IMG/VR virus record: IMGVR_UViG_3300035670_000871 | Origin: a virus | Reading direction: 5' to 3' (one strand) | Length of the DNA stretch: 32,019 bases | Part shown: positions 1 through 32,019 of the stretch, one piece after another | How positions within the stretch are numbered: the stretch's first letter is position 1 | Layout of the letters: the number at the start of each line of letters is the position of its first letter | Program-made: the position numbers and the translations under genes | The notes under the pieces: model-generated | The model's input: only the letters and a program-made list of their open reading frames with translations | Databases searched by the model: none | Told to the model about the DNA's origin: nothing

Positions 1-127
1 ATCTCTTGCACGAGTGACGATGAATCATTCTTCACGACTGTGATGTTAGATCCACCATCTCAAAGTTTTGTCGATTTCAATCTGGTCACACAAGCATTGG
101 TCTGGCAATGGGTCTACGCAAAGATTT
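1..127. repeat. Terminal direct repeat, copy A (identical to 31893-32019); circular-contig overlap
   Basis: Read directly: atctcttgcacgagtgacgatgaatc...gggtctacgcaaagattt occurs at 1-127 and again at 31893-32019, which is the exact window end. I saw no mismatches. Confidence 0.95.
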
Positions 128-201
128 CCAAAGAAGATATAGAGGCTATTGTTTTGCAGCGCATTGCAGATCGACAAACTGTTTCACAAATGCCGTGGTA
201 A
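1..201 (+). CDS. Hypothetical protein, 3' part of the ORF that wraps the contig junction (starts at 31812)
   Basis: The frame is continuous through the overlap: 31893 and position 1 are both codon position 1. Stop TAA at 199-201. The reconstructed product is 93 aa (MSCTWSITKMVSDPDEHDRPNVIREVTISCTSDDESFF...VSQMPW). No family recognised. Confidence 0.55.
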   Translation: MSCTSDDESFFTTVMLDPPSQSFVDFNLVTQALVWQWVYAKISKEDIEAIVLQRIADRQTVSQMPW

Positions 202-210
202 GGAAATGAC

Positions 211-939
211 ATGACACAAGCAGTACAACTCAGAAAAGGCACGACCTCCGAACATTCGACCTTTACGGGTTTGCAGGCAGAGGCAACTGTCGACACGACT
301 AAGAAAACCATCGTAGTCCATGATGGGTCGACTGCTGGCGGCATTCCTTTATCCAGAGAGGATCTGAGCAATGCGAATCCTAGCAATCTGACTACGATTG
401 TTGGGGCTGATACGGCATCTGGCGATCTCTTTGTTGTTTATGACGTTTCAGCGAGCGCGTTTAAGAAGATCACCAGGGCTGAGCTGAACAATGCAATGGA
501 GCAAGATGCACTAGCTTCTGTTGCGATCACTGGCGGCAGCATCAACGGCACGACGATTGGCGCAAGCACTGCAAGCACAGGAGCTTTCACCACCTTATCT
601 GCCTCAAGCACAGTTAGCGGTAATGGATTCAGCACTTATCTAGCCAGCCCACCAACTATTGGCGGCACTAGTCCAGGACTTATAACTGGGACAACAATAA
701 CAGCGACAAATCAATTTTCTGGGCCACATAATGGATCTGTTGGCGCAACCTCGCCGTCGAGCGGAATATTTACCTCATTGGCATCTTTAAGTGTTTTACA
801 AAATGTCCAAACAATTGCATCATCATCATCCATTTCAGCTGGCAACAATGGGCTTTCAGTTGGGCCTGTGACTATTTCTGGTGGGGCTGTTTTTACAGTT
901 CCAAGTGCAAGTATTTGGAAAATTTTAGAAGGAGTTTGA
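211..939 (+). CDS. Tail fibre protein with an Mtd-N-terminal-type domain
   Basis: AAGGAA lies upstream of ATG 211. The N-terminus MTQAVQLRKGTTSEHSTFTGLQAEATVDTTKKTIVVHDGSTAGGIPL fits the QxRxGT..F.G...E..VDT....VVHDG.T.GG motif of the major-tropism-determinant / phage tail-fibre N-terminal domain. The remainder is G/S/T/A-rich and fibre-like. Confidence 0.7.
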   Translation: MTQAVQLRKGTTSEHSTFTGLQAEATVDTTKKTIVVHDGSTAGGIPLSREDLSNANPSNLTTIVGADTASGDLFVVYDVSASAFKKITRAELNNAMEQDALASVAITGGSINGTTIGASTASTGAFTTLSASSTVSGNGFSTYLASPPTIGGTSPGLITGTTITATNQFSGPHNGSVGATSPSSGIFTSLASLSVLQNVQTIASSSSISAGNNGLSVGPVTISGGAVFTVPSASIWKILEGV

Positions 940-940
940 C

Positions 941-1951
941 ATGGCCTATGGCAAAGTGCTCGCAAATGCGACATCTGCAACCGGCGTATTTCGCAAAGCT
1001 GATCCCACAATCGTCGCATGGACCAAAACTGGCGCATTTACAGCTACAACAGCGACTGAATTAACGATTGAGGTAAATGGTGAATCGCAAATCATTGCGT
1101 CTGGAACCTCGATCACGATGCCAGGTTCGGCCACGACAGGAACAGATTATGCAATCTGGGCAAAAACTGATGGCACATTGCAAGCAACAACCGATCACAC
1201 ATCTGCTCCGGCGACTGGTGCTAGAAAAGTCGGTGGGTTTCATTACGCGCCAGGCGGCAACGCAACAGGGACATCTGGCGGTAATACCACAGCAGGAATT
1301 AACGAATATTCTTTTTGGGACTTGAAATTCAGGCCAGCTTGTAAAGATCCTCGCGGCATGACGCTAGTGGCTGGATGTTTTTGGTCTGATATCTATCTTT
1401 GCGGGGTCGATCACTATACAAACGGGACGAGCAAATATAACGTCACGATCGCAGACGGTTCATCGCTGCCTAAGATTAGTGCAGCTTTTGGGGGCACAGG
1501 ATCTAACTCTTATGCTGGCGGCACTTGGTTTGCTTTCAATGAAATTATGCGCGGAGCTGGTAAGCGACTGCCAAGATATACAGAGTTTGCTGCTTTAGCC
1601 TATGGCACGACCGAGGCTTCTTCGCTCGGATCTGATCCGACTACAACAGGGGTCAGCAGCGGCACGTACACAAGCAAATGGGGCGTGATGCAATCCAGTG
1701 GAGTTATGTGGCAGTGGTCAGATGACTTTATTGCAAGTGGCGATGGGACTGGCGGCTGGCAAACTGGACTTACAGAAACCAGAGGCAATATTTATACTTA
1801 CAATTCCTCGGCACGCGCTGGGCTCTTGGGCGGCGGCTGGGCCGACGGGTCGGGTTCCGGTTCTCGTTGCTCGAACTGGACCTACGATCCATCGCTCTCG
1901 GCCAGCCCCATCGGGGCTCGCGGCGTGTGTGACCACCTGATTCTTGATTAA
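941..1951 (+). CDS. DGR target protein, Mtd-like receptor-binding protein with a C-terminal C-type-lectin-fold variable region
   Basis: Strong RBS GAAGGAG at 928-934, then ATG 941. KVGGFHYAPG, NEYSFWDLKFRP, DPRGMTLVAG, TSKYNVTIADG and the C-terminal IGARGVCDHLILD resemble Bordetella phage BPP-1 Mtd (from memory, not aligned). The last 41-46 codons are the VR paired with the TR at 2345-2467. Confidence 0.9.
   Translation: MAYGKVLANATSATGVFRKADPTIVAWTKTGAFTATTATELTIEVNGESQIIASGTSITMPGSATTGTDYAIWAKTDGTLQATTDHTSAPATGARKVGGFHYAPGGNATGTSGGNTTAGINEYSFWDLKFRPACKDPRGMTLVAGCFWSDIYLCGVDHYTNGTSKYNVTIADGSSLPKISAAFGGTGSNSYAGGTWFAFNEIMRGAGKRLPRYTEFAALAYGTTEASSLGSDPTTTGVSSGTYTSKWGVMQSSGVMWQWSDDFIASGDGTGGWQTGLTETRGNIYTYNSSARAGLLGGGWADGSGSGSRCSNWTYDPSLSASPIGARGVCDHLILD
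1811..1933 (+). repeat. DGR variable repeat (VR); conservative core 1816-1933
   Basis: Aligns without gaps to 2345-2467 (offset 534). There are 20 mismatches, all opposite a TR adenine, and 0 mismatches at the 92 non-A positions. It lies at the 3' end of the target CDS, in frame. Confidence 0.93.
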
Positions 1952-1965
1952 GTGGCGAAAGCCAC
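1952..1965 (+). promoter_or_regulatory. Hairpin (5-bp stem, GAAA loop) immediately after the VR/target stop; candidate DGR target-recognition hairpin/cruciform
   Basis: gtggc-gaaa-gccac at 1952-1965 is a perfect inverted repeat. It starts 1 nt after the TAA at 1949-1951 and 18 nt after the last VR/TR-identical base. No T-run follows, so it is not a typical terminator. Confidence 0.5.
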
Positions 1966-1971
1966 GTTGTC

Positions 1972-2346
1972 ATGGAACCAATCTCAGAGGCGACACAATG
2001 TTACGATCAGATGGCTATTATCGAAAAGTACGAAAGGGTCATAGCCTATCTATATCCAATTGCTCAATCGATGCCTCGTCGACATGGGATAGCCAGAGAC
2101 AAGTTTTTGAATTGTCTTTTTTCGGTTCCAGATCTTTTATATCAAGCGGGGAAATCAAATCAGATAAGCAAGATATATGCTGCAGATGCTGGATTGGCTC
2201 ATCTGCGGTTTTGGATGCGATTTCTTTTTACGATCAAAAGCATGACGCAACATCAGCTGCAAACGGCTCAGGCTGTTTTGGCAGAAGTTGGGGCGATGCT
2301 TGGAGGTTGGATCAAAAGAAGAAGAGCGCAGGGGCATACTGGGTAA
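1972..2346 (+). CDS. avd: Accessory variability determinant (Avd)-like protein
   Basis: 124 aa, predicted helical, with a basic C-terminus (GGWIKRRRAQGHTG). It sits between the target gene and the TR exactly as avd does in BPP-1-type DGRs. Its stop TAA (2344-2346) abuts or overlaps the TR start. Confidence 0.8.
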   Translation: MEPISEATQCYDQMAIIEKYERVIAYLYPIAQSMPRRHGIARDKFLNCLFSVPDLLYQAGKSNQISKIYAADAGLAHLRFWMRFLFTIKSMTQHQLQTAQAVLAEVGAMLGGWIKRRRAQGHTG

Positions 2347-2467
2347 AAACGCTGGGATCTTGGGCGGCAACTGGAACAACGGGTCGGATTCCGGTTCTCG
2401 TTGCTCGAACTGGAACAACGATCCATCGAACTCGAACAACAACATCGGGGCTCGCGGCGTGTGTGAC
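2345..2467 (+). repeat. DGR template repeat (TR); conservative core 2350-2467
   Basis: Non-coding copy of the VR. It has 31 adenines, 20 of which are substituted in the VR. Read in the VR frame it carries 11 AAC codons (KNAGILGGNWNNGSDSGSRCSNWNNDPSNSNNNIGARGVCD). Homology breaks at 2468 (g in TR versus c in VR), a non-A difference. Confidence 0.93.
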
Positions 2468-2612
2468 GACATCGATTTATCGCTTCGTAAAGGCTTACGC
2501 ATTACGAGCAGGCCTGTCAAAATGTGGTCAGCCAGCAGTGTCCTCCTTCGGGGAATACATCAAGAGGTCTGGCATAACGTCAAGTAGGCAATCCAAAGAC
2601 GGGGCTAGCACA
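2468..2612 (+). ncRNA. TR-RT spacer, probable 3' part of the DGR template RNA
   Basis: 145-bp gap between the TR and the RT start, with no credible independent ORF. Small hairpin cgtaa-aggc-ttacg at 2486-2499. The functional role is inferred from the BPP-1 DGR RNA (TR plus spacer); it was not folded here. Confidence 0.4.
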
Positions 2613-3605
2613 ATGCCAAAACGACACAGGCATTTGATTGAAAAAATTGCGGACATCCAGAATTTGAGATCTGCATATATCAATACGGCACGATCCAAAC
2701 GAATGACTCATGGATATTTAGAGTTTAAGGAATACGCCGAATCAAATTTATCATTGATTCAATCAGAGCTTTTGGATGGTGGCTATAAGATTGGTCCTTA
2801 TAGAGAGTTTATTATTTATGAGCCTAAGGCGCGATTGATTTCTGCTCTTGATTTCAAAGACAGGTTGGTGCAACACGCACTTTGTAATGTTATTGGACCG
2901 ATCTTCGAAAAAGCAATGCTTCCGCAAACCTTTGCATGTCGTGTTGGACTTGGCACACATGCAGGAGTCAAATATTTGCAAGCGGAAATGCGTCGAATTG
3001 ATGCAACGCACTTTTTGAAAACTGATTTCTCAAAATATTTCCCATCCATAGATCATAAAATCTTGCATGAGATGATTGATCGTAAAATTGACTGCGAAAA
3101 GACCCTGAAGATTCTAAGAGAGATTATTCCAATCAATGGAAAGGGCATCCCGATTGGAAGTTTAACTTCGCAGCTTTTTGCAAATGTTTATGGCGGTTCT
3201 GTTGATCGTTATATTCACTTTGAATTAAAACATCGAGCATGGGCAAGATACATGGATGATATTGTGATTCTTGGGCATGACGAAAAAGAGCTGAGAAGTT
3301 CGTTTTCTAAGATACAAATCTTTTCAAAAGAAAAGTTACTATTAGCAATAAGCAAGTGGCAATCTGGGCCTATCAGCAGAGGCATCAACTTTCTTGGGTA
3401 TCGTATCTGGCCCACGCACAAGCTCTTGAGGAAAGATTCTGTAATAAGAGCAAAACAAAAGATTTCAAAGTTTGTTCGTCTTGGCGATCAAGACTCATTA
3501 AGAAAATTCATTGCTTCATGGTCTGGTCATGCTCGTTGGGCAGACACGCACAACCTTTTTAATTGGATGGAGAATCGACATGGCATCGTTTGTCATCAAC
3601 AGTAG
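2613..3605 (+). CDS. DGR-type reverse transcriptase
   Basis: 331 aa from ATG 2613 (MPKRHRHLIEKI...). RT motifs: LISALDFKDRLVQHAL, FLKTDFSKYFPSIDH, motif 4 IPIGSLTSQLFANVY (the DGR-clade IGxxxSQ signature), motif 5 RYMDDIVILG, and GINFLGYRIW. The size is typical of DGR RTs. Confidence 0.95.
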   Translation: MPKRHRHLIEKIADIQNLRSAYINTARSKRMTHGYLEFKEYAESNLSLIQSELLDGGYKIGPYREFIIYEPKARLISALDFKDRLVQHALCNVIGPIFEKAMLPQTFACRVGLGTHAGVKYLQAEMRRIDATHFLKTDFSKYFPSIDHKILHEMIDRKIDCEKTLKILREIIPINGKGIPIGSLTSQLFANVYGGSVDRYIHFELKHRAWARYMDDIVILGHDEKELRSSFSKIQIFSKEKLLLAISKWQSGPISRGINFLGYRIWPTHKLLRKDSVIRAKQKISKFVRLGDQDSLRKFIASWSGHARWADTHNLFNWMENRHGIVCHQQ

Positions 3606-3819
3606 GGCTGATCTTGATGCAATTGCAGGGACGGTAGAACATCAACGATTTATGCAGGCTTTGCGCGGGTCAATGATTCGCAAGATCAATGTTCAGACGT
3701 ATCCTGATGGATACAACCAGCCTGGCTATAGTGGACCGACATTGGAACCAGTTTGGCAAGATCAGGAAGATCTATCTACGATCGAGCAATTTGGTTTTAC
3801 CAAAGAAGATTTTGAGTGA
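3580..3819 (+). CDS. Hypothetical protein (79 aa)
   Basis: GGAG lies upstream of ATG 3580 (MASFVINSRADLDAIAG...). Overlaps the RT 3' end by 26 nt. The track ORF at 3511 is probably an over-extension. No family recognised. Confidence 0.5.
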   Translation: MASFVINSRADLDAIAGTVEHQRFMQALRGSMIRKINVQTYPDGYNQPGYSGPTLEPVWQDQEDLSTIEQFGFTKEDFE

Positions 3820-3826
3820 GGATGAA

Positions 3827-3991
3827 ATGTCACGCGATGAGGCTTTAGCAGCAATCGAAAAGCACGAGGCTTTATGTGCCTTGCAATATGCTCAGATAAA
3901 CGCTCGACTAAAACGCTTGGAGCAGATTCTGCTTGGTGCTGGCGGTGCAATTATCCTGCTGCTGGTCAACCTGGTGCTAAAGCTGCATTGA
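3827..3991 (+). CDS. Small tail-anchored membrane protein (54 aa)
   Basis: ATG 3827 (MSRDEALAAIEKHE...) follows the stop of the previous ORF. The C-terminal hydrophobic stretch ILLGAGGAIILLLVNLVLKL is a likely TM helix. Sits in the lysis-cassette neighbourhood. Confidence 0.45.
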   Translation: MSRDEALAAIEKHEALCALQYAQINARLKRLEQILLGAGGAIILLLVNLVLKLH

Positions 3992-3992
3992 C

Positions 3993-4175
3993 GTGGAAGC
4001 GATCACCGAAGCTGTCTCGAAATTGTGGTACTTAGGGGCGGCAGTGGTCGGCATTGCTGCTTATGCAGTGACCTTAAAAGTCAGGCTCGATTACTTAGAA
4101 AAGGGCTATGACAAGCAGATCACAGCTCTCTGGGAAAAGGTCAACGAGCTGACTGAAAAACTAGGAATGCGATGA
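3993..4175 (+). CDS. Small membrane protein (60 aa): N-terminal TM plus coiled-coil tail
   Basis: GTG start at 3993, 1 nt after the previous stop. LWYLGAAVVGIAAYAVTL is a likely TM helix, followed by a heptad-like LDYLEKGYDKQITALWEKVNELTEKL. Confidence 0.4.
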   Translation: MEAITEAVSKLWYLGAAVVGIAAYAVTLKVRLDYLEKGYDKQITALWEKVNELTEKLGMR

Positions 4176-4657
4176 TGTTTGATTTGCTCAGCGGCGGTCT
4201 GCTTGGCAGTATCTTTGGCGGTCTTTTTAGACTTGCTCCAGAAGTGCTCAAGTATTTTGACAAGAAGAACGAGCGAAGCCACGAGCTGCAAATGTTCACG
4301 CTCCAGACGGACCTAGAAAAGATGCGTGGTCAGTTTCGGATGGAAGAGCGATATGTCGATCACAGCATTGCTCAGATGGATGCCATAAAGGAGGCTTTTA
4401 AGGAGCAAGCTGAGACTGCCAAGGCTGCGGGATGGTTCGTCGCTGCGATCTCTGCTCTTGTTAGACCTGGAATCACTTGGGTCGCTTTTGGCATGTATAT
4501 GACAGTCAAGATTGTTGGTCTCATGATGGCTTTAGATGCTTCAGCTGATTGGCGAGAAGTGATCGTGAAAAGCTGGGATGAAGATGACTTTGCCATGCTG
4601 AACATGATGCTCACTTTTTGGTTTATTGGTCGCTCCATCGAGAAATATCAAAAGTGA
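4172..4657 (+). CDS. Putative holin (multi-TM, GTA/3TM-holin-like)
   Basis: ATGATG start overlaps the previous stop. 161 aa with hydrophobic segments (LLSGGLLGSIFGGLF; GWFVAAISALV; WVAFGMYMTVKIVGLMMAL; MLNMMLTFWFIG). Lies directly upstream of the endolysin and is translationally coupled to it (GTGA). Confidence 0.45.
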   Translation: MMFDLLSGGLLGSIFGGLFRLAPEVLKYFDKKNERSHELQMFTLQTDLEKMRGQFRMEERYVDHSIAQMDAIKEAFKEQAETAKAAGWFVAAISALVRPGITWVAFGMYMTVKIVGLMMALDASADWREVIVKSWDEDDFAMLNMMLTFWFIGRSIEKYQK

Positions 4658-5653: not shown

Positions 5654-6280
5654 TCATGATTTTTTACCTTCTTTTAGTGCCAGCAAATCCTCGATCACAG
5701 CATCGCATTCAATCAAGAATTGCACTGCAAGCTCCTCGACGTTGGCGATCTCTTCATCGGTTGGCTGAAATCGCACGACAAACAAATCAAGCCCTTTTGG
5801 GAACCTCGGATCGTAAGAAACAAAGTCACACCATTTGCGCCTGGTGCAAGCAAGCTGAGCAAGCATTTGCGGTTTGTGCTCGGCAGGAACGACCTTGCTT
5901 GTCAGCCAGGTGAGGTGATTCAGAGACTCTGGGCATTTGATTTCGACAAGCCCTTCGCTGCCAATCAGACCATCTGGTGATGCGCCAAAGCCTGTGATGC
6001 TCGGATGATCGACGAACCCAGCTTGGTCGACCATCTCTTGCGCTGCGAGCTCGTAGGCAATCCTGGCATCGTTTTCTTGCTCGACTCCCCATTGCATCGC
6101 ACGATTCACAAAGACTGGTGATGGATTGCCTGTCAGCCTCTCACAGATGAGCTGCATTCGATATTTAGCTCGCTCGGCAGATTCGGTCTTGTCCTTCTTA
6201 AACGACATAGCATCTGACATGCGCGATGCAGTTAATTTGCCAAGCCTTACTGCAAACCATTCTGGTGATCGTTGTTCCAT
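5654..6280 (-). CDS. YqaJ-type (lambda-exonuclease-fold) recombination exonuclease
   Basis: The N-terminus MEQRSPEWFAVRLGKLTASRMSD is the YqaJ signature (W...R.G.iTAS). ATG at 6280 overlaps the upstream TGA by 1 nt. Paired with an annealing protein immediately upstream. Confidence 0.8.
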   Translation of the reverse strand: MEQRSPEWFAVRLGKLTASRMSDAMSFKKDKTESAERAKYRMQLICERLTGNPSPVFVNRAMQWGVEQENDARIAYELAAQEMVDQAGFVDHPSITGFGASPDGLIGSEGLVEIKCPESLNHLTWLTSKVVPAEHKPQMLAQLACTRRKWCDFVSYDPRFPKGLDLFVVRFQPTDEEIANVEELAVQFLIECDAVIEDLLALKEGKKS

Positions 6281-6855
6281 CACTTGACTCCTAATTCGGT
6301 TTTGCGTAGATCCTTGGCTTTTACAATATCAAGCCTTCTTGGGTCACCTTTTGGTAATGCCTGCTGTGCCTGCACATAAGCGGCCTGGAGCGATTCTTTG
6401 TCGGCTGCCTTAGTGATGTTGTCTAGCAGTGATTCGTAGTCCACAGCGACCGATTCTGAGCCATCCTGAGTCTTTGCTTCGATATTTGTTTCGACTTTAG
6501 GATCTGGCAGCGACTCGTCCTCATAGACATAGAGACCAAGGCCAAAGAGCGCACAGGCTTTCACCAGGCAACGCTGCATGGCTTTGTTGATGTCCATTGC
6601 ATTCGGATTCACGATCGCTTTGTTCTTGAAATCCATCACAGGCAGGTGGGCGGTCCTGGTTACTCCTTGGACGGTTAGCGAGCAATAGACCATGACGGTT
6701 TCTGCAAACCATTTTTCTTCTTCAAACTTGAAGGTTGCAGTCGGGTCTATCCGCATGATCTGATCCCAAGCGCGAGCCCAAGGCAGATATTTCATGCCTT
6801 GCTTGGTCTTGAGGTCTTTTTCTAGATTGATTTGTGCGATGTCTTGGTAGTTCAT
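6280..6855 (-). CDS. Single-strand annealing protein, Rad52-like (Sak / DUF1071-type)
   Basis: YLPWARAWDQIMRIDP...VMVYCSLTVQGVTRTAHLPVMD...NKAMQRCLVKACALFGLGLYVYEDE matches my recollection of the DUF1071/Sak family blocks. Its position next to the YqaJ exonuclease fits a two-component recombinase. Confidence 0.6.
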   Translation of the reverse strand: MNYQDIAQINLEKDLKTKQGMKYLPWARAWDQIMRIDPTATFKFEEEKWFAETVMVYCSLTVQGVTRTAHLPVMDFKNKAIVNPNAMDINKAMQRCLVKACALFGLGLYVYEDESLPDPKVETNIEAKTQDGSESVAVDYESLLDNITKAADKESLQAAYVQAQQALPKGDPRRLDIVKAKDLRKTELGVK

Positions 6856-9098: not shown

Positions 9099-9779
9099 AT
9101 GCACTACTACCCCCACCATATCGGGGACTTCTTGCGGGATACCGCATCACTTAGTCCAACAGAATCCTACTTTTATTTGAGGCTGATTTGGCTTTACTAC
9201 GAGTCAGAAAGCCCGTTGCCAGATGACCCAGAAGTCTTGGCTTTCAAGATAGGAGCAAGAGATCATCTCGAATCTGTTTCGCTTCTGTTGCGGACCTTTT
9301 TCAGATATGAATCGGATCTGAAATCATATCGGCATCAGAGAATTGACCTCGAGATTTCCAAGTATCAGAAGAAGGCAGCTTCTGCAAAGGTTGCGAATCG
9401 CAAACGATGGGCATCTGAAATGGATCTGAAATCAGATGCGGATCAGATCCCAACCAATAACCAAGAACCAATAACCAATATAAGTAAGCAAAAAAATAGT
9501 TTTGCAAAGCCTGATGGTGTTCCTGATGATCTTTGGCAAGACTTTAAGCAGACAAGAAAAGCCAAACGAGCACCGATAACAAAAGTTGCAATGGATGGCA
9601 TACAGAGAGAAGCAAAGTTGGCAGGCATCCATCTTGGTGATGCTTTGAGAATTGTTTGCGAAAGAGGTTGGACTAGTTTTAAAGCAGATTGGTATTTAAA
9701 CGATAAGGCGAAGCCTGCAAGCCAAAAAACGGACACAGCACCGCGCCAGCTTGATTCGATCATGAAGGGGGCTTTGTGA
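9099..9779 (+). CDS. DUF1376 / YdaU-family protein (phage replication-associated)
   Basis: The N-terminus MHYYPHHIGDFLRDTASLSPTESYFYLRLIWLYYESESPLPDD matches the conserved start of the YdaU/DUF1376 family (hYYxFHIGDYxxDTxHLSxxE.GAYLRLL..YY..E.PLP). Confidence 0.7.
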   Translation: MHYYPHHIGDFLRDTASLSPTESYFYLRLIWLYYESESPLPDDPEVLAFKIGARDHLESVSLLLRTFFRYESDLKSYRHQRIDLEISKYQKKAASAKVANRKRWASEMDLKSDADQIPTNNQEPITNISKQKNSFAKPDGVPDDLWQDFKQTRKAKRAPITKVAMDGIQREAKLAGIHLGDALRIVCERGWTSFKADWYLNDKAKPASQKTDTAPRQLDSIMKGAL

Positions 9780-14238: not shown

Positions 14239-15528
14239 ATGCAAATATTTTTTGGCTCCCTTCAGAGCAATTCGTTTGCGGGTAATTCGGACCCCGATAA
14301 AAAACTAGCGACAGATTCTATTCATGGTCTTTCATTACAGGAGCGAGCATTGAAGGTTGATCTCATCCCGATCGAGAAAGTAATCCCCTATGCAAAAAAT
14401 CCGAGGCGAAACGAGGCGGCAATTGCAAAAGTTGCAGGCAGCATTAAGGAGTTTGGTTTTCGTCAGCCTATTGTTGTCGACTCCGAAATGGTGGTTATCG
14501 CTGGCCACACAAGACTGGAGGCTGCGCGATCGCTTGGCATTGCGAATGTGCCAGTTCATATTGCCGAAGGTCTGAGCAAGTCACAAATCAAGGCTTATCG
14601 CATCGCAGACAATCGAGTTGCTCAAGAGGCTGAATGGGATTTAGACCTTTTGAAAATCGAGCTGTCGGAATTGCGCGACGAGGAGTTTGATTTAAGCGAG
14701 ACTGGATTTGATGAAGATGAGCTGAATGATTTGCTTGCTGAAGCTGTTGCAGAAGGCTTAACCGACGAGGATGCTGTTCCTGAGCCTCCACCGGAGCCTA
14801 TTACAAAGCTCGGAGACATCTGGATACTAGGCAAGCACCGATTGATGTGCGGCGATAGTACGAGCGTGGATGCGGTTGAGAGACTAATGGCTGGCGAACG
14901 ACCCAGAATGGTTTTCACCGACCCACCGTATGGCATCGCACACAGCGGAAAGGGAATTACAGCAAACGGTGTGGGCAACGACTTCGGGCAAATACTGGGC
15001 GACGAAGATGTTAGCGTCGCTATTGACACATTCCGCCTCTGCGTTGGTCAGTGGCCAGAGGCGCGAATGGTATTTTGGGGCGCAAACTACTACCCTAGCG
15101 CCTTGCCTGACGGCCACGGCTGGCTGGTGTGGGACAAGCAGCGCGAGGGCGACACATTTTCTGGCGCTGAGTTGGCGTTCATTAATGGTGGCGTGCGAGT
15201 TGATGTTTTTCGGCACATGTGGCATGGCATGGTCAAAGCAAGTGAGCATGGCCAAAAGCGCATACATCCCACCCAAAAGCCGATTGCGTTGGCTGAATGG
15301 TGCTTTGCTAAATACGGCGACTCAAGCACTGTTCTTGATTTGTTTGGCGGCAGCGGCAGCACTTTGATTGCCTGCGAAAAAACAGGTCGGTCTTGTCGAA
15401 TGATGGAACTAGACCCAAAATACTGCGATGTCATCGTCAAACGATGGGAAGAATTCACCGGCAAGAAAGCGAGATTAGAAAATGGCAGTGGCGACCTACG
15501 GACTGGAGACGATCTGCAAGCTGCTTGA
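14239..15528 (+). CDS. ParB-like nuclease domain fused to a DNA methyltransferase (N6-A/N4-C, beta class)
   Basis: N-terminal ParB/Srx-type block IPYAKNPRRNEAAIAKVAGSIKEFGFRQPIVV...IAGHTRLEAA. C-terminal MTase block with motif IV VFTDPPYGI preceding motif I LDLFGGSGSTLIACEKTGR. The start codon is uncertain. Confidence 0.85.
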   Translation: MQIFFGSLQSNSFAGNSDPDKKLATDSIHGLSLQERALKVDLIPIEKVIPYAKNPRRNEAAIAKVAGSIKEFGFRQPIVVDSEMVVIAGHTRLEAARSLGIANVPVHIAEGLSKSQIKAYRIADNRVAQEAEWDLDLLKIELSELRDEEFDLSETGFDEDELNDLLAEAVAEGLTDEDAVPEPPPEPITKLGDIWILGKHRLMCGDSTSVDAVERLMAGERPRMVFTDPPYGIAHSGKGITANGVGNDFGQILGDEDVSVAIDTFRLCVGQWPEARMVFWGANYYPSALPDGHGWLVWDKQREGDTFSGAELAFINGGVRVDVFRHMWHGMVKASEHGQKRIHPTQKPIALAEWCFAKYGDSSTVLDLFGGSGSTLIACEKTGRSCRMMELDPKYCDVIVKRWEEFTGKKARLENGSGDLRTGDDLQAA

Positions 15529-18382: not shown

Positions 18383-19857
18383 AGCTCTTTGATTTTTTCC
18401 GTAGAAAGACCGAGCAGAAGATTGCAAAGCCTCTGTTGCGAAATTACAACGGTGCGGCGGGCGGTCGTTTGCTTTCTGATTTTGTCATCAACAACCAGAC
18501 TGCTGATTCTGCGCTGCAATACAGCCTGCCAACCTTACGCAATCGCTCGCGGGATCTTGAGCGCAACAACGAATATGCTCGAAAGTATCTGACGCTATTG
18601 CAGACTAATGTGGTTGGTGATGCAGGCTTTAATTTGCAAGTAAAAGCGCGAACCACCAACGGCAGCCTGGACGGTCCTGGCAACACCATGATTGAAAATG
18701 CCTGGACTCGTTGGAGTCGTGTTGGCAATTGCACTGTCGACAAGAAACTGTCCTTTCTCGATTGCCAGCGACTTGCGGTGCGAATGCTTGCTCGTGATGG
18801 TGAGTGCTTTGTGCAGCTGCTCAACGGTCCAAGATACCAGGACGGTTTTGCAATCAAGTTGATGGAAGCTGATTGGATCGACGATCAAAAGAATGAGATT
18901 CTCAGCAATGGCAATCAGATTCGGATGGGCATCGAGATTGATGAGATGCAGTCGGTGGTTGCTTACTGGGTGCTGACGCAGCATCCTGGTGATACGTCTT
19001 TCAGGACCAATGTGGCTCGAAAGCATATTCGAGTGCCTGCTGACAGGATCTTGCATCTTTATATGCCCAATCGCTTAGGAGTTCGTGGCGAACCTTGGAT
19101 GGCTCCAGTGATTGACTCGCTGAAGATGCTCAGAGGTTACAGAGAAGCTGAGCTCGTGGCTGCGAGGGTTGCTGCAAGCAAAATGGGAGTGATTACGACC
19201 CCGACAGGCACTGAATACACAGGCGATGGCACAGAAAACAGCCACACGCCAATCATGAATGCTGATCCTGGGACATTCCACCAGTTGCCTGCTGGCTGGG
19301 ACATCAAGATGTTCGACCCAACGCACCCGACAAGTGCTTTCGGTGATTTTGAGAAAGCAGTGCTGCGAGGCATTGCTAGCGGTCTGAATGTGGCTTATAC
19401 GAGCCTGTCAAATGATCTGGAGGCGACAAGCTACTCAAGCATCAGAGCTGGGACGCTTGAAGATCGAGACAATTATCGAGTGCTGCAATCATTCATCATC
19501 GAGCACTTTGTCGATCCGATCTATCGTCAGTGGCTTGCCTCTGCGATGCTTAACAATTCATTCCCATTGCCTCCAACCAGGTTCGACAAGTTTGCAGATG
19601 CAACGGTCTGGCGAGGTCGCGGCTGGAATTGGGTTGATCCGTTAAAAGAGATCAACGCTGCGGTGGTTGGTCTCAACAATGGCATTTTGTCTATGCAAGA
19701 CGTGGCAGCTCAATACGGCAGAGACGTAGAAGAAACCTTCTCGGCTATTCAGCGCGACAAGGAGCTTGCAGCACAATACGGGCTGAGCATGAGTTTTGAG
19801 CCCTTTGGTGAGAAGATGCCTGCTCCTGCAATGGTTGACGAAAATGCCGATTCCTAA
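18379..19857 (+). CDS. Portal protein, lambda gpB family
   Basis: 492 aa, follows terL and the W-like gene. Blocks such as RNRSRDLERNNEYARKY, ECFVQL and GEPWMAPV are typical of the Phage_portal_2 (lambda) family, as far as I recall. Confidence 0.8.
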   Translation: MKLFDFFRRKTEQKIAKPLLRNYNGAAGGRLLSDFVINNQTADSALQYSLPTLRNRSRDLERNNEYARKYLTLLQTNVVGDAGFNLQVKARTTNGSLDGPGNTMIENAWTRWSRVGNCTVDKKLSFLDCQRLAVRMLARDGECFVQLLNGPRYQDGFAIKLMEADWIDDQKNEILSNGNQIRMGIEIDEMQSVVAYWVLTQHPGDTSFRTNVARKHIRVPADRILHLYMPNRLGVRGEPWMAPVIDSLKMLRGYREAELVAARVAASKMGVITTPTGTEYTGDGTENSHTPIMNADPGTFHQLPAGWDIKMFDPTHPTSAFGDFEKAVLRGIASGLNVAYTSLSNDLEATSYSSIRAGTLEDRDNYRVLQSFIIEHFVDPIYRQWLASAMLNNSFPLPPTRFDKFADATVWRGRGWNWVDPLKEINAAVVGLNNGILSMQDVAAQYGRDVEETFSAIQRDKELAAQYGLSMSFEPFGEKMPAPAMVDENADS

Positions 19858-22303
19858 TGAAAGCATGGTTGAAGAGGCGCAGCGCGGACTGGCCTGGCGG
19901 CGAGAATTCGGACGTGGTGGGACTGCTGTTGGGATTGCTCGCGCTCGCGACATTTCTAATGGTGTTGATCTTCCGATGGCTACTATCCGACGAATGAAGG
20001 CTTATTTTGACCGGCACGAGGTCGACAAAGAGGCTCAAGGATTTAGACCAGGCGAAAATGGATACCCCAGCAATGGGAGAATCGCTTGGGCTCTGTGGGG
20101 CGGCGATCCTGGGCAGACCTGGGCAAATCGTCTTGTCGCGCAAGACAATGAAGAGGAAAGAAGCATGATTGAGGAAAGACCTTATCCAAACGAACATGCA
20201 GCCAGGCTGACTGATCCGGCGCAATACGATGGCTTTGCTCGTGTGAATGACCAGTTCGGACCAGGCATTGATGCGATCTTTGGGATCAAGGACGGTGAGA
20301 GCGAATTGCAAGCAATCAGGTTTGATGCAGATCGTTTCACTGCTGATGAGGCAAGAGAATGGCTTGCAGAGCATGACTATGACCCGATAGAATTCGAGGA
20401 GGCGACAGGAGAGGACGCAAGCGGCGATACTTCTGACGACAATGACGAGGATGAAATGGCTGCTGAAGAGCGCAAAAGCATTGCGAAGCTGAATACCAGG
20501 GCGATGACCTGGGAAGCATCTATCGACCAAAAAGCTCGCACTGCGCTGATCGCTGTCTCCTCTGAGGCTCCTGTCGAGCGATATTTTGGGACTGAGATTC
20601 TCAATCACGAGGCTCGGTCTATTGATCTGACATTTATGAATTCTGGTCGGGCTCCTCTTTTGCTCGATCATGACGCGACCAAGCAGATTGGGGTCGTGGA
20701 GTCTGTGACACTTGATGAGTCAACCCGTCGACTACGGGCAAAGGTTCGCTTCGGAAGAGGTGAGCTGGCAAGTGAGGTGTTTCAGGATGTTTCTGACGGT
20801 ATCCGCAGCAACATTTCTGTCGGTTACGAGATCCGAAAAATGGATGAGGTAACCAAAGGTGAATTCCGAGTCATGGACTGGTCACCTCTTGAAATTTCAA
20901 TCGTGAGCATTCCTGCTGACCAGACAGTCGGCGTGGGTCGGTCGAAAGAAATGGATTCTTCTCAACCTGTCATTTTCCAAAAGGAAGAAATCATGTCTGA
21001 TGTAAATCTCGATCAGATTCGTTCCGAAGCAGCAGCAAAAGCTCGTCAGGACGCATCTGCAATTCTCGCTCTTGCAGCTCGCCACAATCGCAGCGATCTC
21101 GGTCGCAAAGCTATTGAGGAAGGCACAAGCATTGAGGCTTTCCGTGGTCAGTTGCTGGATGCAATCGGCAATGACAAACCTCTCGACACTCGTGCGACTG
21201 ACATTGGTGCATCGCGTCATGAGCAAAAGGAATACTCCTTAGCTCGTGCTCTTCGCGCTATGACCACCAATGATTGGAGGCAAGCAGGTTTCGAGCGTGA
21301 AGTCAGCGACACCATTGCTCGCAGTATTGGTCGTGACGCAAAGGGCATCTTTGTTCCTGATTTCGTATGGGGCAAGCGTTCTGGTCCTATGTCGACTGCT
21401 GCAACAGGTGGCTCTGCTTCTGAGAATGTCTCTGACAAGCTCGTGCCAACGATTCAGGCTGGTGACATGTTCATCGAGGCTCTTCGCAATCGCATGGTGA
21501 TGGCTGATCTCGGTGTCACGTTCATGAATGGTCTTGTAGGCAAGATCCAGATCCCCAAGTTCTCTGCTGGTGCTAATGCAGCATTTGTGGAAGAGCTCGC
21601 AGCGGTGTCTGACCAGTCTCCGACCGATGCAGCTGTGACGTTGCAGCCTCGTACGCTTGGTGCTTATGTAGACATTTCGCGTCTGCTTATGATGACCTCG
21701 GTTCCTGCTGTCGATCAGATCGTTCGCAACGACCTGCTTGCAAGCATGGCAGAGCGCATTGAGTATTACGCAATCAACGGCTCTGGCTCTAGCGGTCAGC
21801 CCACTGGCTTGCTGAATCTGTCGGGTATCAACGATATTGACATCTCTGCTGGCACTGATGTTGATTCGCTGACCTGGGCTGACATCGTTGCGCTCGTGAA
21901 GGCTGTGGAAGAGGACAACGGCGTGGTGAATCCTGCTGCTCTTGGCTGGCTGACCCATCCTGCTGTTAAGGCAAAGCTCGCATCGACTGCAAAAGTGTCA
22001 AGCACTGATTCGGTCATGATCTTGGCTGAGCCCTGGAATTCGTTGTATGGCTACAAGTTTGCAGCCACAGCAGCAGTTCCAACCAACCTCGATCCAGGCG
22101 ATGCAGGCAATGACGCTTCGGCACTCATCTTCGGTGACTTCTCACAGTTGATGGTTGGAACCTGGGGCGCACCTGAGATCCTCGTCGATCCTTATACTGG
22201 CGGCACTGCTGGTACGGTTCGTATCATCGTGATGCAGGAAGTTGATGTTGCAGCTCGCAACGCAGTCAGCTTCGCGCTAACGAACGAAGTCTCGGTTGCC
22301 TGA
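19844..22303 (+). CDS. Fusion protein: N-terminal domain of unknown function + HK97-type prohead protease + HK97-fold major capsid protein
   Basis: A single open frame. The protease block covers about 20504-20950 (...LLLDHDATKQIGVV...VRFGRGELASEVFQDV...ISVGYEI...EISIVSIPADQ). Then an in-frame ATG at 20993 is preceded by AAGGAAG and followed by a delta-domain-like helix and a capsid fold (...YVDISRLL...GDFSQLMVGTWG...). Confidence 0.75.
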   Translation: MPIPNESMVEEAQRGLAWRREFGRGGTAVGIARARDISNGVDLPMATIRRMKAYFDRHEVDKEAQGFRPGENGYPSNGRIAWALWGGDPGQTWANRLVAQDNEEERSMIEERPYPNEHAARLTDPAQYDGFARVNDQFGPGIDAIFGIKDGESELQAIRFDADRFTADEAREWLAEHDYDPIEFEEATGEDASGDTSDDNDEDEMAAEERKSIAKLNTRAMTWEASIDQKARTALIAVSSEAPVERYFGTEILNHEARSIDLTFMNSGRAPLLLDHDATKQIGVVESVTLDESTRRLRAKVRFGRGELASEVFQDVSDGIRSNISVGYEIRKMDEVTKGEFRVMDWSPLEISIVSIPADQTVGVGRSKEMDSSQPVIFQKEEIMSDVNLDQIRSEAAAKARQDASAILALAARHNRSDLGRKAIEEGTSIEAFRGQLLDAIGNDKPLDTRATDIGASRHEQKEYSLARALRAMTTNDWRQAGFEREVSDTIARSIGRDAKGIFVPDFVWGKRSGPMSTAATGGSASENVSDKLVPTIQAGDMFIEALRNRMVMADLGVTFMNGLVGKIQIPKFSAGANAAFVEELAAVSDQSPTDAAVTLQPRTLGAYVDISRLLMMTSVPAVDQIVRNDLLASMAERIEYYAINGSGSSGQPTGLLNLSGINDIDISAGTDVDSLTWADIVALVKAVEEDNGVVNPAALGWLTHPAVKAKLASTAKVSSTDSVMILAEPWNSLYGYKFAATAAVPTNLDPGDAGNDASALIFGDFSQLMVGTWGAPEILVDPYTGGTAGTVRIIVMQEVDVAARNAVSFALTNEVSVA

Positions 22304-26546: not shown

Positions 26547-27172
26547 GTCGCGGTCTTACAGCTGGCGCACTTGCTCAGATCGCAGCGACCGAGCTGCAAC
26601 CGATTCTTTTATTTCAAGCTGAGTTTCAGTCGGGCACGATTTATATCTGGAATGGTATTGGCGATCTAAGTTGGAATTCGCAGACCTGGACAGGTGTTGG
26701 CACTTTTATGAGCTTTTCTGACATTGAGGAAAGCACAGAAGTGAAGGCAGTTGGTGCGACCATTACGCTCAACGGCATTCCTAGCGATTTAGTGTCAACA
26801 GCTTTATCTGATGTCCGACAAAACAAGCCTGGCAAGCTCTATCTTGGCTTTTTATCTTCGGGCTCTATCGTTTCTGATCCTTATCTCATCTTCGCTGGCA
26901 GGCTGGATGTTGTTCATCTCGATGAGTCATCAGAAGGATCAACAATCTCTTTGCAATACGAATCGAGGCTGATTGATCTTTCTAGGCCCAGAGTTTTTCG
27001 ATATACCCCAGAAGATCAAGAGCGAGAGTTTGCAGGCGATTTAGGCATGGAGTTTGTCCCAGCATTGCAAGACAAAAAGGTGACCTGGGGACGTGTAAGC
27101 AATGCTGTTCCATCAGGAGCTGGGTCAGGTGGCGCACCTCCTGTCGATGAACAACAAACAACAGGGATGTAA
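26543..27172 (+). CDS. Minor tail / tail-tip hub protein (DUF2163-like N-terminus)
   Basis: LQPILLFQAEFQSGTIYIWNGIGDLSWNSQTWTGVG...TITLNGI resembles the conserved start of the tail-tip proteins that precede J-like proteins. Confidence 0.4.
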   Translation: MSRGLTAGALAQIAATELQPILLFQAEFQSGTIYIWNGIGDLSWNSQTWTGVGTFMSFSDIEESTEVKAVGATITLNGIPSDLVSTALSDVRQNKPGKLYLGFLSSGSIVSDPYLIFAGRLDVVHLDESSEGSTISLQYESRLIDLSRPRVFRYTPEDQEREFAGDLGMEFVPALQDKKVTWGRVSNAVPSGAGSGGAPPVDEQQTTGM

Positions 27173-30100
27173 TGGGCTTTCTTGAAATCATCTTAGCAAT
27201 TGCGAGCATGGCTGCTGGAGAGGCGGCTGTTAGTTATTTCGCGATAACTTCTGCTTGGCAAGCTGCTGCGGTTCGCTTTGCTGTCGCTCTTGCGATCTCG
27301 ACTGCATCTAGAAACTTAGTTACTCGCAAATCATTCCAAAGCGAAGCTGAGGGCAGGATCATCACGACTAAGGAGCCTTTGGCGGCCGCTAAAGTGATTT
27401 ATGGTCGGGTGAGAGTCGGCGGCACGATTGTCTACATGGAGACCACTAGCAGCTCCAACGAATATTTGCACATGGTGATCGTCCTTGCTGGTCACGAGGT
27501 TCACGCGATTGATGACATCTACTTTGATGATGAGCTCGTTCCTTTAGACGGATCTGGCAATGCAACTGGCACTTTTGCTGATCTTGTAAGAATCAAGAAA
27601 GCTCTCGGCACTGATGCACAAACAGCCTTTAGCGATCTGGTGTCTGAGTCTGATTCGCTTTGGACAAGCAATCATCGACTGAGAGGTCGCGCTGCAATCT
27701 ATGTGAGGCTCAAATACAACCAGGACAAGTTTCCCAACGGTGTCCCTAATATCACAGCCATTGTCAGAGGCAAGAAGGTTTACGACCCAAGGACCACGAC
27801 GACTGCTTACAGCACAAATCCTGCTCTGATCGTTGCTGATTACCTTTGCAACACCAGATATGGACTTGGCGCGACTTATGCCACAGAGATCGACGAAACA
27901 GCTCTGACAGCTGCTGCAAACATTTGCGACCAGGATGTCACGCTCGATGCTGGCGGCACTGAAGATCGCTACACAGCAAACGGATCATTTGACACGACTG
28001 AAGTGCCAGAGAAGGTGCTTGCTGAGCTTTGCAGCGCAATGGCAGGTCATGTCACCTATGTTGGCGGCAAATGGTCGATTCTTGCAGGAGCCTATAGATC
28101 ACCATCAATCACGCTTGACGAAGATGACTTGCGAGCAGGCTTTAAGGTGCAAACCTTGGTTTCTCGCAGAGATCAATTCAACTCAGTCAAAGGTGTTTTT
28201 AGCTCACCAGACAACCTTTGGCAGCCAACGGATTTCCCGTCCTATTCTTCTGCTACTTTTGTATCAGAGGACAATAGCGAGACGGTTTACAGAGATATTT
28301 CGCTCCCCTATACGACCAGTGCAGCCACAGCGCAGCGTTTAGCGAAGATTGAGCTTTACAAGGCTCGTGAGCAGCTGTCGATGACTTTGCCTTGCAAGCT
28401 CACTGCTTATGGGGTCCAAGTTGGTGATGTGGTCAATGTAACCAATACCAGGATGGGCTGGTCTGCCAAGGCTTTCGAGGTTGTAGGCACAAAACTTGTT
28501 TTTGATCTCGATGCTGGCTTTGGTGTTGATCTTGATCTTAGAGAAACGAATTCAAGCATCTACTCTTGGGATGAAGCAACCGAAGAGCAAGAGTTTGTGC
28601 AGGCTCCGAATACCAACTTGCCAAACCCAAGATCTGTTCCTGCTCCTACAGCTCTGACGCTCACTGAGGTCAAAGTTCTTCTCAATGATGGAACCCTTGC
28701 CAATGGCATTCGAGTTAGTTGGACAGCTCCGAGCGATTATTTTGTCAAGGAATATGAGGTCCAATACATCAGGACTGGTGGGGCGATCGACTATGGGCTC
28801 ATCAGCCAGGCTGCAACTTCCTCACAGTCATTTGGCGACATCACTGCAAGCGCAACCGCTACGTTGAATTATGGGTCGATCTCAGATGTCATCATTTCTG
28901 GCGAGCCTGAATTCAACAGCGGCACGACAACAACAACGCAGCTGACGATCGCTCCAGTCATCCAGGCTGTCGAATATACGGTCAAGGTCCGATCGGTTTC
29001 TCATTTGGCAGTGAGATCTGCCTTTGTGCAAGACACGATCACCACAGGCGGCGATACAACGGCTCCTGCTGCACCATCACTTATCACGGCAACCGGCAAG
29101 ATCAGGTCAATTGTTTTGAATTGGGAAAACCCATCTGATCTTGATTTTGATTCGGTGGAAGTATTTAGAAACACGACCAACAGCGTTAATTCTGCGACCA
29201 AGGTTGCTCAGATTGCTGCTGACAATTGGACCGACACAAATCTTGATAGTGATGTCACGCGCTATTACTGGCTGCGATCGGTCGACATGTCTGGCAATCG
29301 CTCGGCATTCAGCTCTTCAGTCAATGCAACGACTCAAACGATTGTTTCTGCTGATTTCAGTGCTGAGGTGCTTAATCTCTTTGCTGAGGCTGGGGCTTAT
29401 GGGATTGAGCCTGTCGCATCATTGCCAGCAAGTGGAGATTTTGTCGGGCAGATCAAGTTTGATACGACTGCGGTTGCTCTCTATCGTTGGACGGGATCAG
29501 CCTGGGACGATGACATTTTTAGCATCACGACAGGATCTGTTACCGCAAGTGCTTTTGCTGCTGGCATCGAACCTATTTCAGTCGTCAGCTCTTTGCCAAG
29601 CGCATCAGGTTACACAGGCCCGAAGGTTGTTTTTCTGACCACAGATGGCAAGCTCTATCGTTATGCTTCTGGGGCGTGGACAACTGCGGTGCTCACCTCG
29701 GATCTTTCTGGGACGCTTGCATCTTCGCAATTCAGCAACAGCCTGAGGCCTGTCGAGGTTGTTTCGTCATTACCAAGCAGCTCCAACTTCCAGGGGCGCA
29801 CAGTTTTTCTCACGACCGACAACAAGATATATCGGCATGATGGGACAAACTGGACTGCTGCGGTCCCAGCTTCAGATCTATCAGGCACTGTTTCTGATGC
29901 ACAGATCGCTGGCCTGGCGGCTGCGAAGATCACCGGCACACTAACCAATTCCCAGATCGCTGATGTCGCAGCTGCAAAGATCACTGGATCTATTGTCGGA
30001 ACCCAGATCACAGATGGCGCAATCTCAACAGCAAAGCTCGCAGCAGGATCGGTGACTACTGCCAAAGTTGCAGCTGGAGCAATTTCAGCAGATGAGATTG

Positions 30101-31815: not shown

Positions 31816-32019
31816 GCTGTACCTGGTCGATCACAAAAATGGTTTCTGATCCAGATGAGCATGATCGTCCTAATGTGATTAGAGAAGTGACGATCTCTTG
31901 CACGAGTGACGATGAATCATTCTTCACGACTGTGATGTTAGATCCACCATCTCAAAGTTTTGTCGATTTCAATCTGGTCACACAAGCATTGGTCTGGCAA
32001 TGGGTCTACGCAAAGATTT
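31812..32019 (+). CDS. Hypothetical protein, 5' part of the junction-spanning ORF (continues at 1-201)
   Basis: ATG 31812 overlaps the J-like stop (ATGA). It runs off the window end and is in frame with 1-201 through the 127-bp overlap. Confidence 0.55.
   Translation, partial: MSCTWSITKMVSDPDEHDRPNVIREVTISCTSDDESFFTTVMLDPPSQSFVDFNLVTQALVWQWVYAKI
31893..32019. repeat. Terminal direct repeat, copy B (identical to 1-127)
   Basis: See copy A. Confidence 0.95.

Follow-up and report, generated by a model that had tools for sequence, protein, structure and literature searches.

We analysed the IMG/VR virus record IMGVR_UViG_3300035670_000871, a stretch of 32,019 nucleotides referred to here as the window, which carries a locus laid out like the diversity-generating retroelement (DGR) of Bordetella phage BPP-1. 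Read along the forward strand, on which all parts of the cassette and its adjoining genes lie, the locus begins with the DGR target (941-1951), a gene for 336 amino acids (aa) that corresponds to the body of the BPP-1 protein Mtd, with its beta-sandwich and C-type-lectin receptor-binding domain. It is followed by avd, the accessory variability determinant (1972-2346, 124 aa), by a non-coding template repeat (TR; 2350-2467) and by the gene encoding the DGR reverse transcriptase (RT; 2613-3605, 330 aa plus a stop codon). Codons ~293-331 of the target form a variable repeat (VR; 1816-1933). An initial annotation had proposed the same four parts, and the three open reading frames (ORFs) that it gave for the target, Avd and the RT proved exact.

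An offset scan of the region returned a single outstanding self-match, at +534, and a repeat finder recovered the same VR/TR pair. Over the 118 nt of this repeat the two copies differ at 16 positions, 16 of 16 opposite adenines of the TR. Given 26 adenines among the 118 TR positions, an adenine-only pattern of 16 mismatches has a probability of 2.3e-13 (hypergeometric), and the claim that TR and VR are identical at every non-adenine position holds across the repeat, with 0 non-adenine differences. In the VR frame, the TR has ten AAC codons, and 25 of its 26 adenines occupy codon positions 1 and 2, the classic DGR design. The predicted start of the cDNA at G2463 leaves 25 of the 26 adenines upstream, so that 25 would be templated; the AAC and other adenine-bearing codons would then let the ligand-binding face of the tip take about 1.5e14 forms at the protein level, from about 1e15 at the DNA level. 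A search of the genome for a second VR or a remote target found none, leaving one VR and one TR only. The TR is also crossed, in the VR frame, by a 99-aa 'ORF' (2288-2587, +; …GILGGNWNNGSDSGSRCSNWNNDPSNSNNNIGARGVCDD…), a by-product of the TR copying coding sequence that a gene caller could mistake for a gene.

The RT aligns with BPP-1 bRT (PDB 8ub7_A) over its full length (residues 1-328 to 1-328, E = 4.5e-147) and is 64% identical to Brt; its best match to a non-DGR enzyme, a group II intron RT, reaches E = 2.4e-16, in keeping with the proposed placement among DGR RTs. Both motifs singled out in the initial annotation were recovered, RYMDDIVILG in alignment with Brt YMDD 213-216 and IGSLTSQ with I181-Q187, and the enzyme keeps R74, I181-GSLTSQ187 and the catalytic YMDD213-216, which fits the YxDD box of DGR RTs, at Brt residue numbers. 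The DGR RT motif [I/V/L]GxxxSQ has been defined previously, and R74 and I181 were shown to promote adenine mutagenesis (both PMC7826257). The Avd-like character suggested for 1972-2346 was borne out by a score of 113.9 bits against NCBIfam NF033474 (DivGenRetAVD equivalog; cut-off 80) and of 99 bits against Pfam bAvd, by 63% identity to bAvd and by matches to the Bbp7/Avd structures PDB 4dwl (E = 3e-50) and 8ub7_B. Its placement between target and TR is that of architecture B1.

RNA and DNA elements mapped in the BPP-1 DGR have counterparts here as well. The initiation of mutagenic homing (IMH) element, which marks the 3' limit of mutagenesis and is used here as defined in PMC5758913, spans 1913-1946 and joins a GC-rich stretch of 14 nt to a 20-nt element on its 3' side. 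The GACCACCTGATTCTTGA at its tail is identical in the window and in the BPP-1 VR, the last 17 nt matching exactly in the alignment. At the TR, IMH* spans 2447-2480 and departs from IMH from 2468 on: past the shared GC-rich 14-mer, the sequence reads CACCTGATTCTTG in the VR and GACATCGATTTAT in the TR (from 1934 and 2468, respectively). The first non-adenine difference between VR and TR, at 1934/2468, coincides with the point at which IMH and IMH* part. The 145-nt interval between TR and RT gene matches the Rfam family RF03022 'Phage_DGR' at 89.7 bits (gathering score 50) over the full length of the model (1-127), placing a spacer (Sp) RNA at 2482-2609. Its GTGGTCAGCC block is the same as BPP-1 Sp 50-59, which makes A2530 the counterpart of Sp A56, the nucleotide whose 2'-OH primes cDNA synthesis in BPP-1 (PMC6182149). 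The BPP-1 initiation triplet G117-U118-G119 corresponds to 2463-2465 and is conserved. Terminators predicted around the cassette were not above shuffled expectation.

Positioned 1 nt after the stop codon of the target, the sequence at 1952-1965 reads as a target-recognition hairpin or cruciform, GTGGC-GAAA-GCCAC, with a 5-bp stem and a DNA fold of -5.7 kcal/mol (z = -2.5). The BPP-1 counterpart, GCGGGGCC-GAAA-GGCCCCGC, has an 8-bp stem and folds at -13.3 kcal/mol. In BPP-1, efficient homing depends on a hairpin/cruciform whose loop is GRNA and whose GC stem is 7-10 bp long, and homing is markedly reduced when the stem is shortened by 2 bp (Guo et al., PMC3240598). The window hairpin thus fits in its GAAA loop and its position, whereas its stem has 5 bp compared with 7-10 bp in published phage DGRs. 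Of 56 related loci, 49 have a hairpin in this position whose perfectly paired stem is 4 bp or longer; the stems measure 4-8 bp (most commonly 6) and the loop is GAAA in 35 of the 49; the stem sequences differ and the pairing is kept. Stems of 4-5 bp are found in 5 of the 56 loci, including the window and a relative, L002.

Natural variation at the locus bears on whether the element has been active. We compared three VR alleles from assembled environmental contigs, those of the window, L002 and L124; these contigs, together with L122/L126, represent the same phage lineage as the window or near relatives. The alleles differ at 24 of 118 VR columns and at 0 of the 815 columns directly upstream (1001-1815). 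Twenty-one of the variable columns lie at adenines of both known TRs, one mirrors a TR change and two are non-adenine. The RT of L002 is the same as that of the window, and over ~10.6 kb the two contigs share 95-98% identity; between the two there are 0 differences in 901-1800, 20 within 1823-1912 and 1 in the TR. For 18 of these 20 VR differences both TRs have A at the corresponding position; of the other two, one is at 1874 and one is at a non-adenine position (1912). The sole change in the L002 TR is A2408T, and the L002 VR also has T at the matching position, 1874; the pair is a signature of TR-to-VR information transfer, in which a template change was copied into the target. L124 (IMGVR_UViG_3300005805_001277), which an exact-pattern search brought up, is identical to the window over 1001-1822 and has 17 VR differences, likewise inside 1823-1912. 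It has undergone a clean 1,099-bp deletion (L124 12356-12364, equivalent to window 2357-3455) and despite this still carries its own diversified VR allele. L124 therefore resembles a DGR that was disabled only recently, its tip left 'frozen', although a chimeric assembly is possible. The fourth contig, L122/L126 (Ga0129336_10000843, 18,136 bp, 98-99% identical), ends at window ~1841, 26 nt into the VR. Assemblies often break at hypervariable sites, and the end of this contig is consistent with such a break. The presence of distinct VR alleles beside a near-invariant TR indicates that the element was probably active recently.

The alleles also help to define where the repeat begins. The repeat itself and its 3' end at 2467 stand as originally annotated, whereas the annotated TR start at 2345 is probably 5 nt too early. 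Immediately 5' of the repeat the TR side reads AAAAA and the VR side GCACG (1811-1815), and GCACG is the same in all three natural VR alleles. Since these VR positions are invariant, while 22 of the other 25 TR adenine positions vary among the three alleles (one of them being T in the L002 TR), the repeat most likely starts at 1816/2350.

The target gene scores 64.4 bits against Pfam mtd_2nd and matches Mtd in PDB 1yu4 (aa 52-381, E = 2e-99). It is 55% identical to Mtd, and from this identity the VR, at the 3' end of the ORF, is predicted to fall within a C-type-lectin fold. The gene upstream (211-939, 242 aa) encodes an adaptor or fibre protein, in which the first ~52 aa are an Mtd N-terminal domain and the following ~190 aa are Gly/Ser/Thr-rich and fibre-like. 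Its N terminus matches Pfam Mtd_N (53.4 bits, aa 5-41) and is 65% identical to BPP-1 Mtd 1-52, the match covering Mtd residues 1-55; the protein also matches PHROG 9648 'tail protein'. The adaptor ends in a TGA stop codon (937-939), the ATG of the target (941) follows after 1 nt, and a GGAG Shine-Dalgarno sequence lies 6 nt before that ATG. L002 has the identical junction. In L124, the adaptor is 296 aa long and the junction has diverged to GGG-GAT-TAA-T-ATG, keeping the stop/1-nt/ATG layout and a purine-rich Shine-Dalgarno sequence. Separate Mtd-body genes of ~350 aa directly follow a fibre gene in at least 8 other loci. Relatives other than L124 have a separate body gene that starts 8-12 nt after the upstream stop codon and has its own GGAG. 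Target open frames span 349-1173 aa across related loci. Fusion of Mtd_N to the target is limited to BPP-1, four IMG/VR loci (L008, L032, L035 and L076) and one Polynucleobacter prophage; in the lineage of the window (window, L002 and L124) Mtd_N is found on the separate adaptor gene. The C-terminal adaptor motif SVGPVT..G..T..S.W.I also occurs in the upstream genes of L006 and L124.

Apart from the target hairpin, whose short stem is the one caveat, each defining DGR feature that we tested fits, and we are highly confident that the locus is a complete and recently active DGR of the BPP-1 type. Several observations weigh against this conclusion. The hairpin stem has just 5 bp (-5.7 kcal/mol), compared with 8 bp (-13.3 kcal/mol) in BPP-1, and perfect homology 5' of the first mutable adenine extends over only 7 nt. 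Promoter predictions around the cassette were not above chance or shuffled expectation. Two of the differences among the alleles are opposite TR bases other than adenine (1853 G>A in L124 and 1912 C>G in L002) and may reflect ordinary mutation or non-canonical RT error. L124, in which the TR is missing from its 8th base onward together with the entire spacer RNA and 843 nt at the start of the RT gene, suggests that the element can decay, and activity is inferred by comparing three assembled alleles. One could therefore imagine a DGR relic, whose parts are still recognizable, whose retrohoming has been lost in this genome and whose VR differences were fixed in an ancestor, as the 5-bp stem, the loss of TR and RT from L124 with its diversified VR kept, and the comparative nature of the activity evidence, drawn from assembled alleles, would allow. 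We consider this very unlikely, given that all ORFs are intact, that every checked functionally mapped residue or RNA position is conserved and that a TR substitution was copied into the L002 VR. Moreover, the three genomes show 0 differences over the 815 nt upstream against 17-20 inside the VR, so diversification would postdate every ordinary substitution in the gene, a pattern hard to reconcile with a dead element. The chance that we are instead looking at an ordinary tandem duplication of a tail-fibre 3' end beside an unrelated RT (from a retron, a group II intron or a defence system), with a coincidental or compositional adenine bias, is vanishingly small. The RT does give sub-threshold matches to the NCBIfam group II intron, retron and Drt models, but all are far under their cut-offs (e.g. 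101 vs 300 bits) and compare with E = 4.5e-147 for bRT. Together with the 2e-13 chance of the adenine-only pattern and the presence of Avd, the Rfam DGR RNA, the IMH and the hairpin, this refutes the duplication scenario.

The arrangement of adaptor and target raises a further alternative, namely that the two genes produce one protein through a programmed, prfB-like +1 frameshift at GTT-TGA-C (934-940), which would fuse adaptor and Mtd body and so recreate a single Mtd of the BPP-1 type, here with a shaft inserted. The Mtd body does lie in the +1 frame relative to the adaptor, and GGAG-TT-TGA-C superficially resembles the shift site of release factor 2 (RF2). This frame is open only from 929, and the shift would have to fall exactly there. 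However, the slippery motif is gone in L124, in which layout and Shine-Dalgarno sequence are retained; because the L124 junction has diverged while its layout is the same, it counts against both a prfB-like frameshift and an assembly error. The body genes of other relatives are plainly separate and have their own GGAG, and the GGAG is optimally spaced from the ATG, at 6 nt, for ordinary initiation or for coupling. We therefore rejected the frameshift, which we regard as highly improbable. The initial annotation had described an Mtd-type target split into two genes. The two genes, adaptor and body, were confirmed; a broken gene is not what they represent, since the junction is kept in two relatives and separate bodies occur in at least 8 loci. 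The 'split Mtd' is best read as a stable two-gene system of adaptor and hypervariable tip, modular and recurring across the family. The tip may dock, without a covalent link, on the adaptor encoded upstream and bearing the Mtd N-terminal domain.

By homology with BPP-1, a cycle of the complete and recently active DGR that we favour would start with transcription of the avd-TR-Sp-RT region, the folded TR/Sp RNA then being bound by an RT-Avd complex. The 2'-OH of spacer A2530 would prime the cDNA, starting at TR G2463, the equivalent of BPP-1 G117. The TR would be copied faithfully except opposite adenines, at which random bases would enter, and the cDNA would replace VR 1816-1933 in the receptor-binding gene, guided by the IMH (1913-1946) and the GAAA hairpin (1952-1965). 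The TR itself would remain unchanged through the cycle. The varied C-type-lectin tail tip could allow the phage to follow changes in host surface receptors. Both the chemistry of priming and integration and the receptor-binding role are proposed by analogy with BPP-1.

A small ORF of 79 aa (3580-3819), which overlaps the 3' end and stop codon of the RT gene, is 67% identical to BPP-1 bbp4. In 78 of 79 related loci the RT is immediately followed by a bbp4 homologue; by comparison, genes further downstream (the lysis genes) are common to at most 7 of 56. The bbp4-like family comprises 110 clusters, all of ~80 aa and all unannotated. In its most divergent homologue, P0110, the contig ends just upstream. 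The ORF of the window had no match in Pfam, NCBIfam or PHROG, its confident AlphaFold2 model (predicted local distance difference test score, 88) matched no fold in PDB or BFVD at E<=0.001, and the name 'bbp4' was not found in the literature searched. Retrohoming has been obtained with avd-TR-brt alone, other phage sequences being absent (Guo et al. 2011), and because only these components were needed, bbp4 is not essential for homing. One possibility is that the bbp4-like protein acts as a fifth component, for instance by modulating retrohoming or by assisting the assembly of Mtd-type tips. Encoding the Mtd body in its own gene behind an Mtd N-domain adaptor may, in turn, let a 'hypervariable tip + DGR' unit plug into unrelated tails, here that of a lambda-like siphovirus. 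The broader idea, that the BPP-1-clade cassette is larger and more modular than the canonical four parts, with a bbp4-like fifth component and a separate Mtd-body gene, is one that we put forward tentatively and consider rather unlikely.

The ends of the window are identical over 127 nt (1-127 = 31893-32019), and the contig is therefore circular, with a length of ~31,892 bp, which places the DGR directly after the gene for a J-like tail protein (27172-31815, +, 1547 aa) across the join. The DGR thus does sit at the end of the tail module, as had been suggested; a 93-aa ORF spans the circular join (31812 to 201). The proposed lambda-like backbone was likewise confirmed, with GpA ATPase and nuclease domains in the terminase, a lambda-family portal, a head-tail attachment protein, a tail tube, a lambda-type tape measure (Tape_meas_lam_C) and the J-like protein. 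An 835-aa ORF (19796-22303, +), the start of which overlaps the end of the portal gene, combines a Peptidase_S78 prohead protease with an HK97-type capsid domain; the 'major capsid protein' of Roseobacter phage CRP-811 is similarly long. The J-like protein has a weak match to Peptidase_S74 (endosialidase intramolecular chaperone) at aa 1434-1489 (20 bits vs a cut-off of 22). Because of this match at its C terminus, the phage may possess a second, non-diversified fibre-like receptor binder.

By TerL, the nearest cultured phages are Roseobacter phages CRP-811 to CRP-831 (29-32.5 kb; 61-65% identity), the identities to Roseobacter CRP phages in general being 58-65%. CRP-811 has the same order of morphogenesis genes, without a DGR, and no homology was found between the adaptor or tip and its distal tail proteins. 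TerL relatives in genomes are mostly in metagenome-assembled genomes of Alphaproteobacteria (~50% identity), and the host may be weakly indicated by these relatives. Elsewhere in the genome we noted an Rfam int-alpA RNA motif (RF02996; 9013-9079, +; 42.2 bits against a gathering score of 35.8) immediately upstream of a DUF1376 gene (9099-9779), a ParB_N-DNA methyltransferase fusion (14239-15528, +) upstream of the terminase genes, and a YqaJ exonuclease and Sak single-strand-annealing pair (5654-6855, -). No integrase domain was detected among the ORFs scanned against Pfam and PHROGs, a scan that covered part of the ORFs, and searches for tRNAs and tandem repeats found none.

The locus introduces no new DGR principle: it closely replicates the prototype, and environmental viral contigs commonly carry cassettes of this kind. 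What makes it valuable is that it provides a clean natural example, in which a complete circular phage genome of ~31.9 kb conserves the mapped functional elements of the BPP-1 DGR, the target hairpin with a shorter stem. Three VR alleles on an otherwise identical gene supply comparative evidence of activity outside Bordetella, and one relative has lost TR and RT. The mtd-avd-TR-brt-bbp4 block travels as one module among phages with unrelated backbones, and the receptor-binding tip can be encoded apart from its N-terminal anchor; both properties would be useful for engineering DGR-tipped phages. New directions could come only from the modularity of adaptor and tip and from the bbp4-like gene with its conservation.

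Comparison with the prototype shows how closely the cassette has been kept. The BPP-1 DGR, mtd-avd-TR-brt (Liu et al. 2002), represents architecture B1 of Wu et al. 2018 (PMC5758913), and gene order and spacing are the same in the window. Identities to BPP-1 are 64% for the RT, 63% for Avd, 55% for the Mtd body, 65% for Mtd_N and 67% for bbp4, and the AAC-codon scaffolds of the two TRs are nearly superimposable. Shared features also include the last 17 nt of the IMH, the GAAA loop of the hairpin after the stop codon, the spacer family in Rfam, the priming adenosine and the G-U-G start, and in both phages a lysis cassette follows the DGR. By contrast, the carrier here is a lambda-like siphovirus-type genome of ~31.9 kb, compared with the 42.5-kb Rauchvirus BPP-1. 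In a blastn comparison of window positions 1-4200 with BPP-1, similarity was confined to the cassette (query 1226-3601); outside the DGR, the backbone of BPP-1 (genus Rauchvirus) is not shared. The two systems further differ in the target, the Mtd N-terminal domain being on a separate 242-aa adaptor here and fused to the body in BPP-1, in the hairpin stem (5 bp vs 8 bp) and in the TR, which measures 118 nt here (131 nt with IMH*) and 134 nt in BPP-1. As in two-component phage receptor-binding assemblies, a fibre-like protein is followed by a separately translated tip, a likeness seen in gene layout alone. Environmental DGRs have been surveyed at large scale (Roux et al. 2021, PMC8144416), and in IMG/VR at least 158 viral contigs encode RTs that are 62-74% identical to that of the window. 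Environmental members of the BPP-1 clade, in IMG/VR and in a Polynucleobacter prophage, also have, where flanks are available, Avd, an Mtd-body target, a post-stop hairpin and a bbp4-like ORF; the N termini of their targets vary widely.

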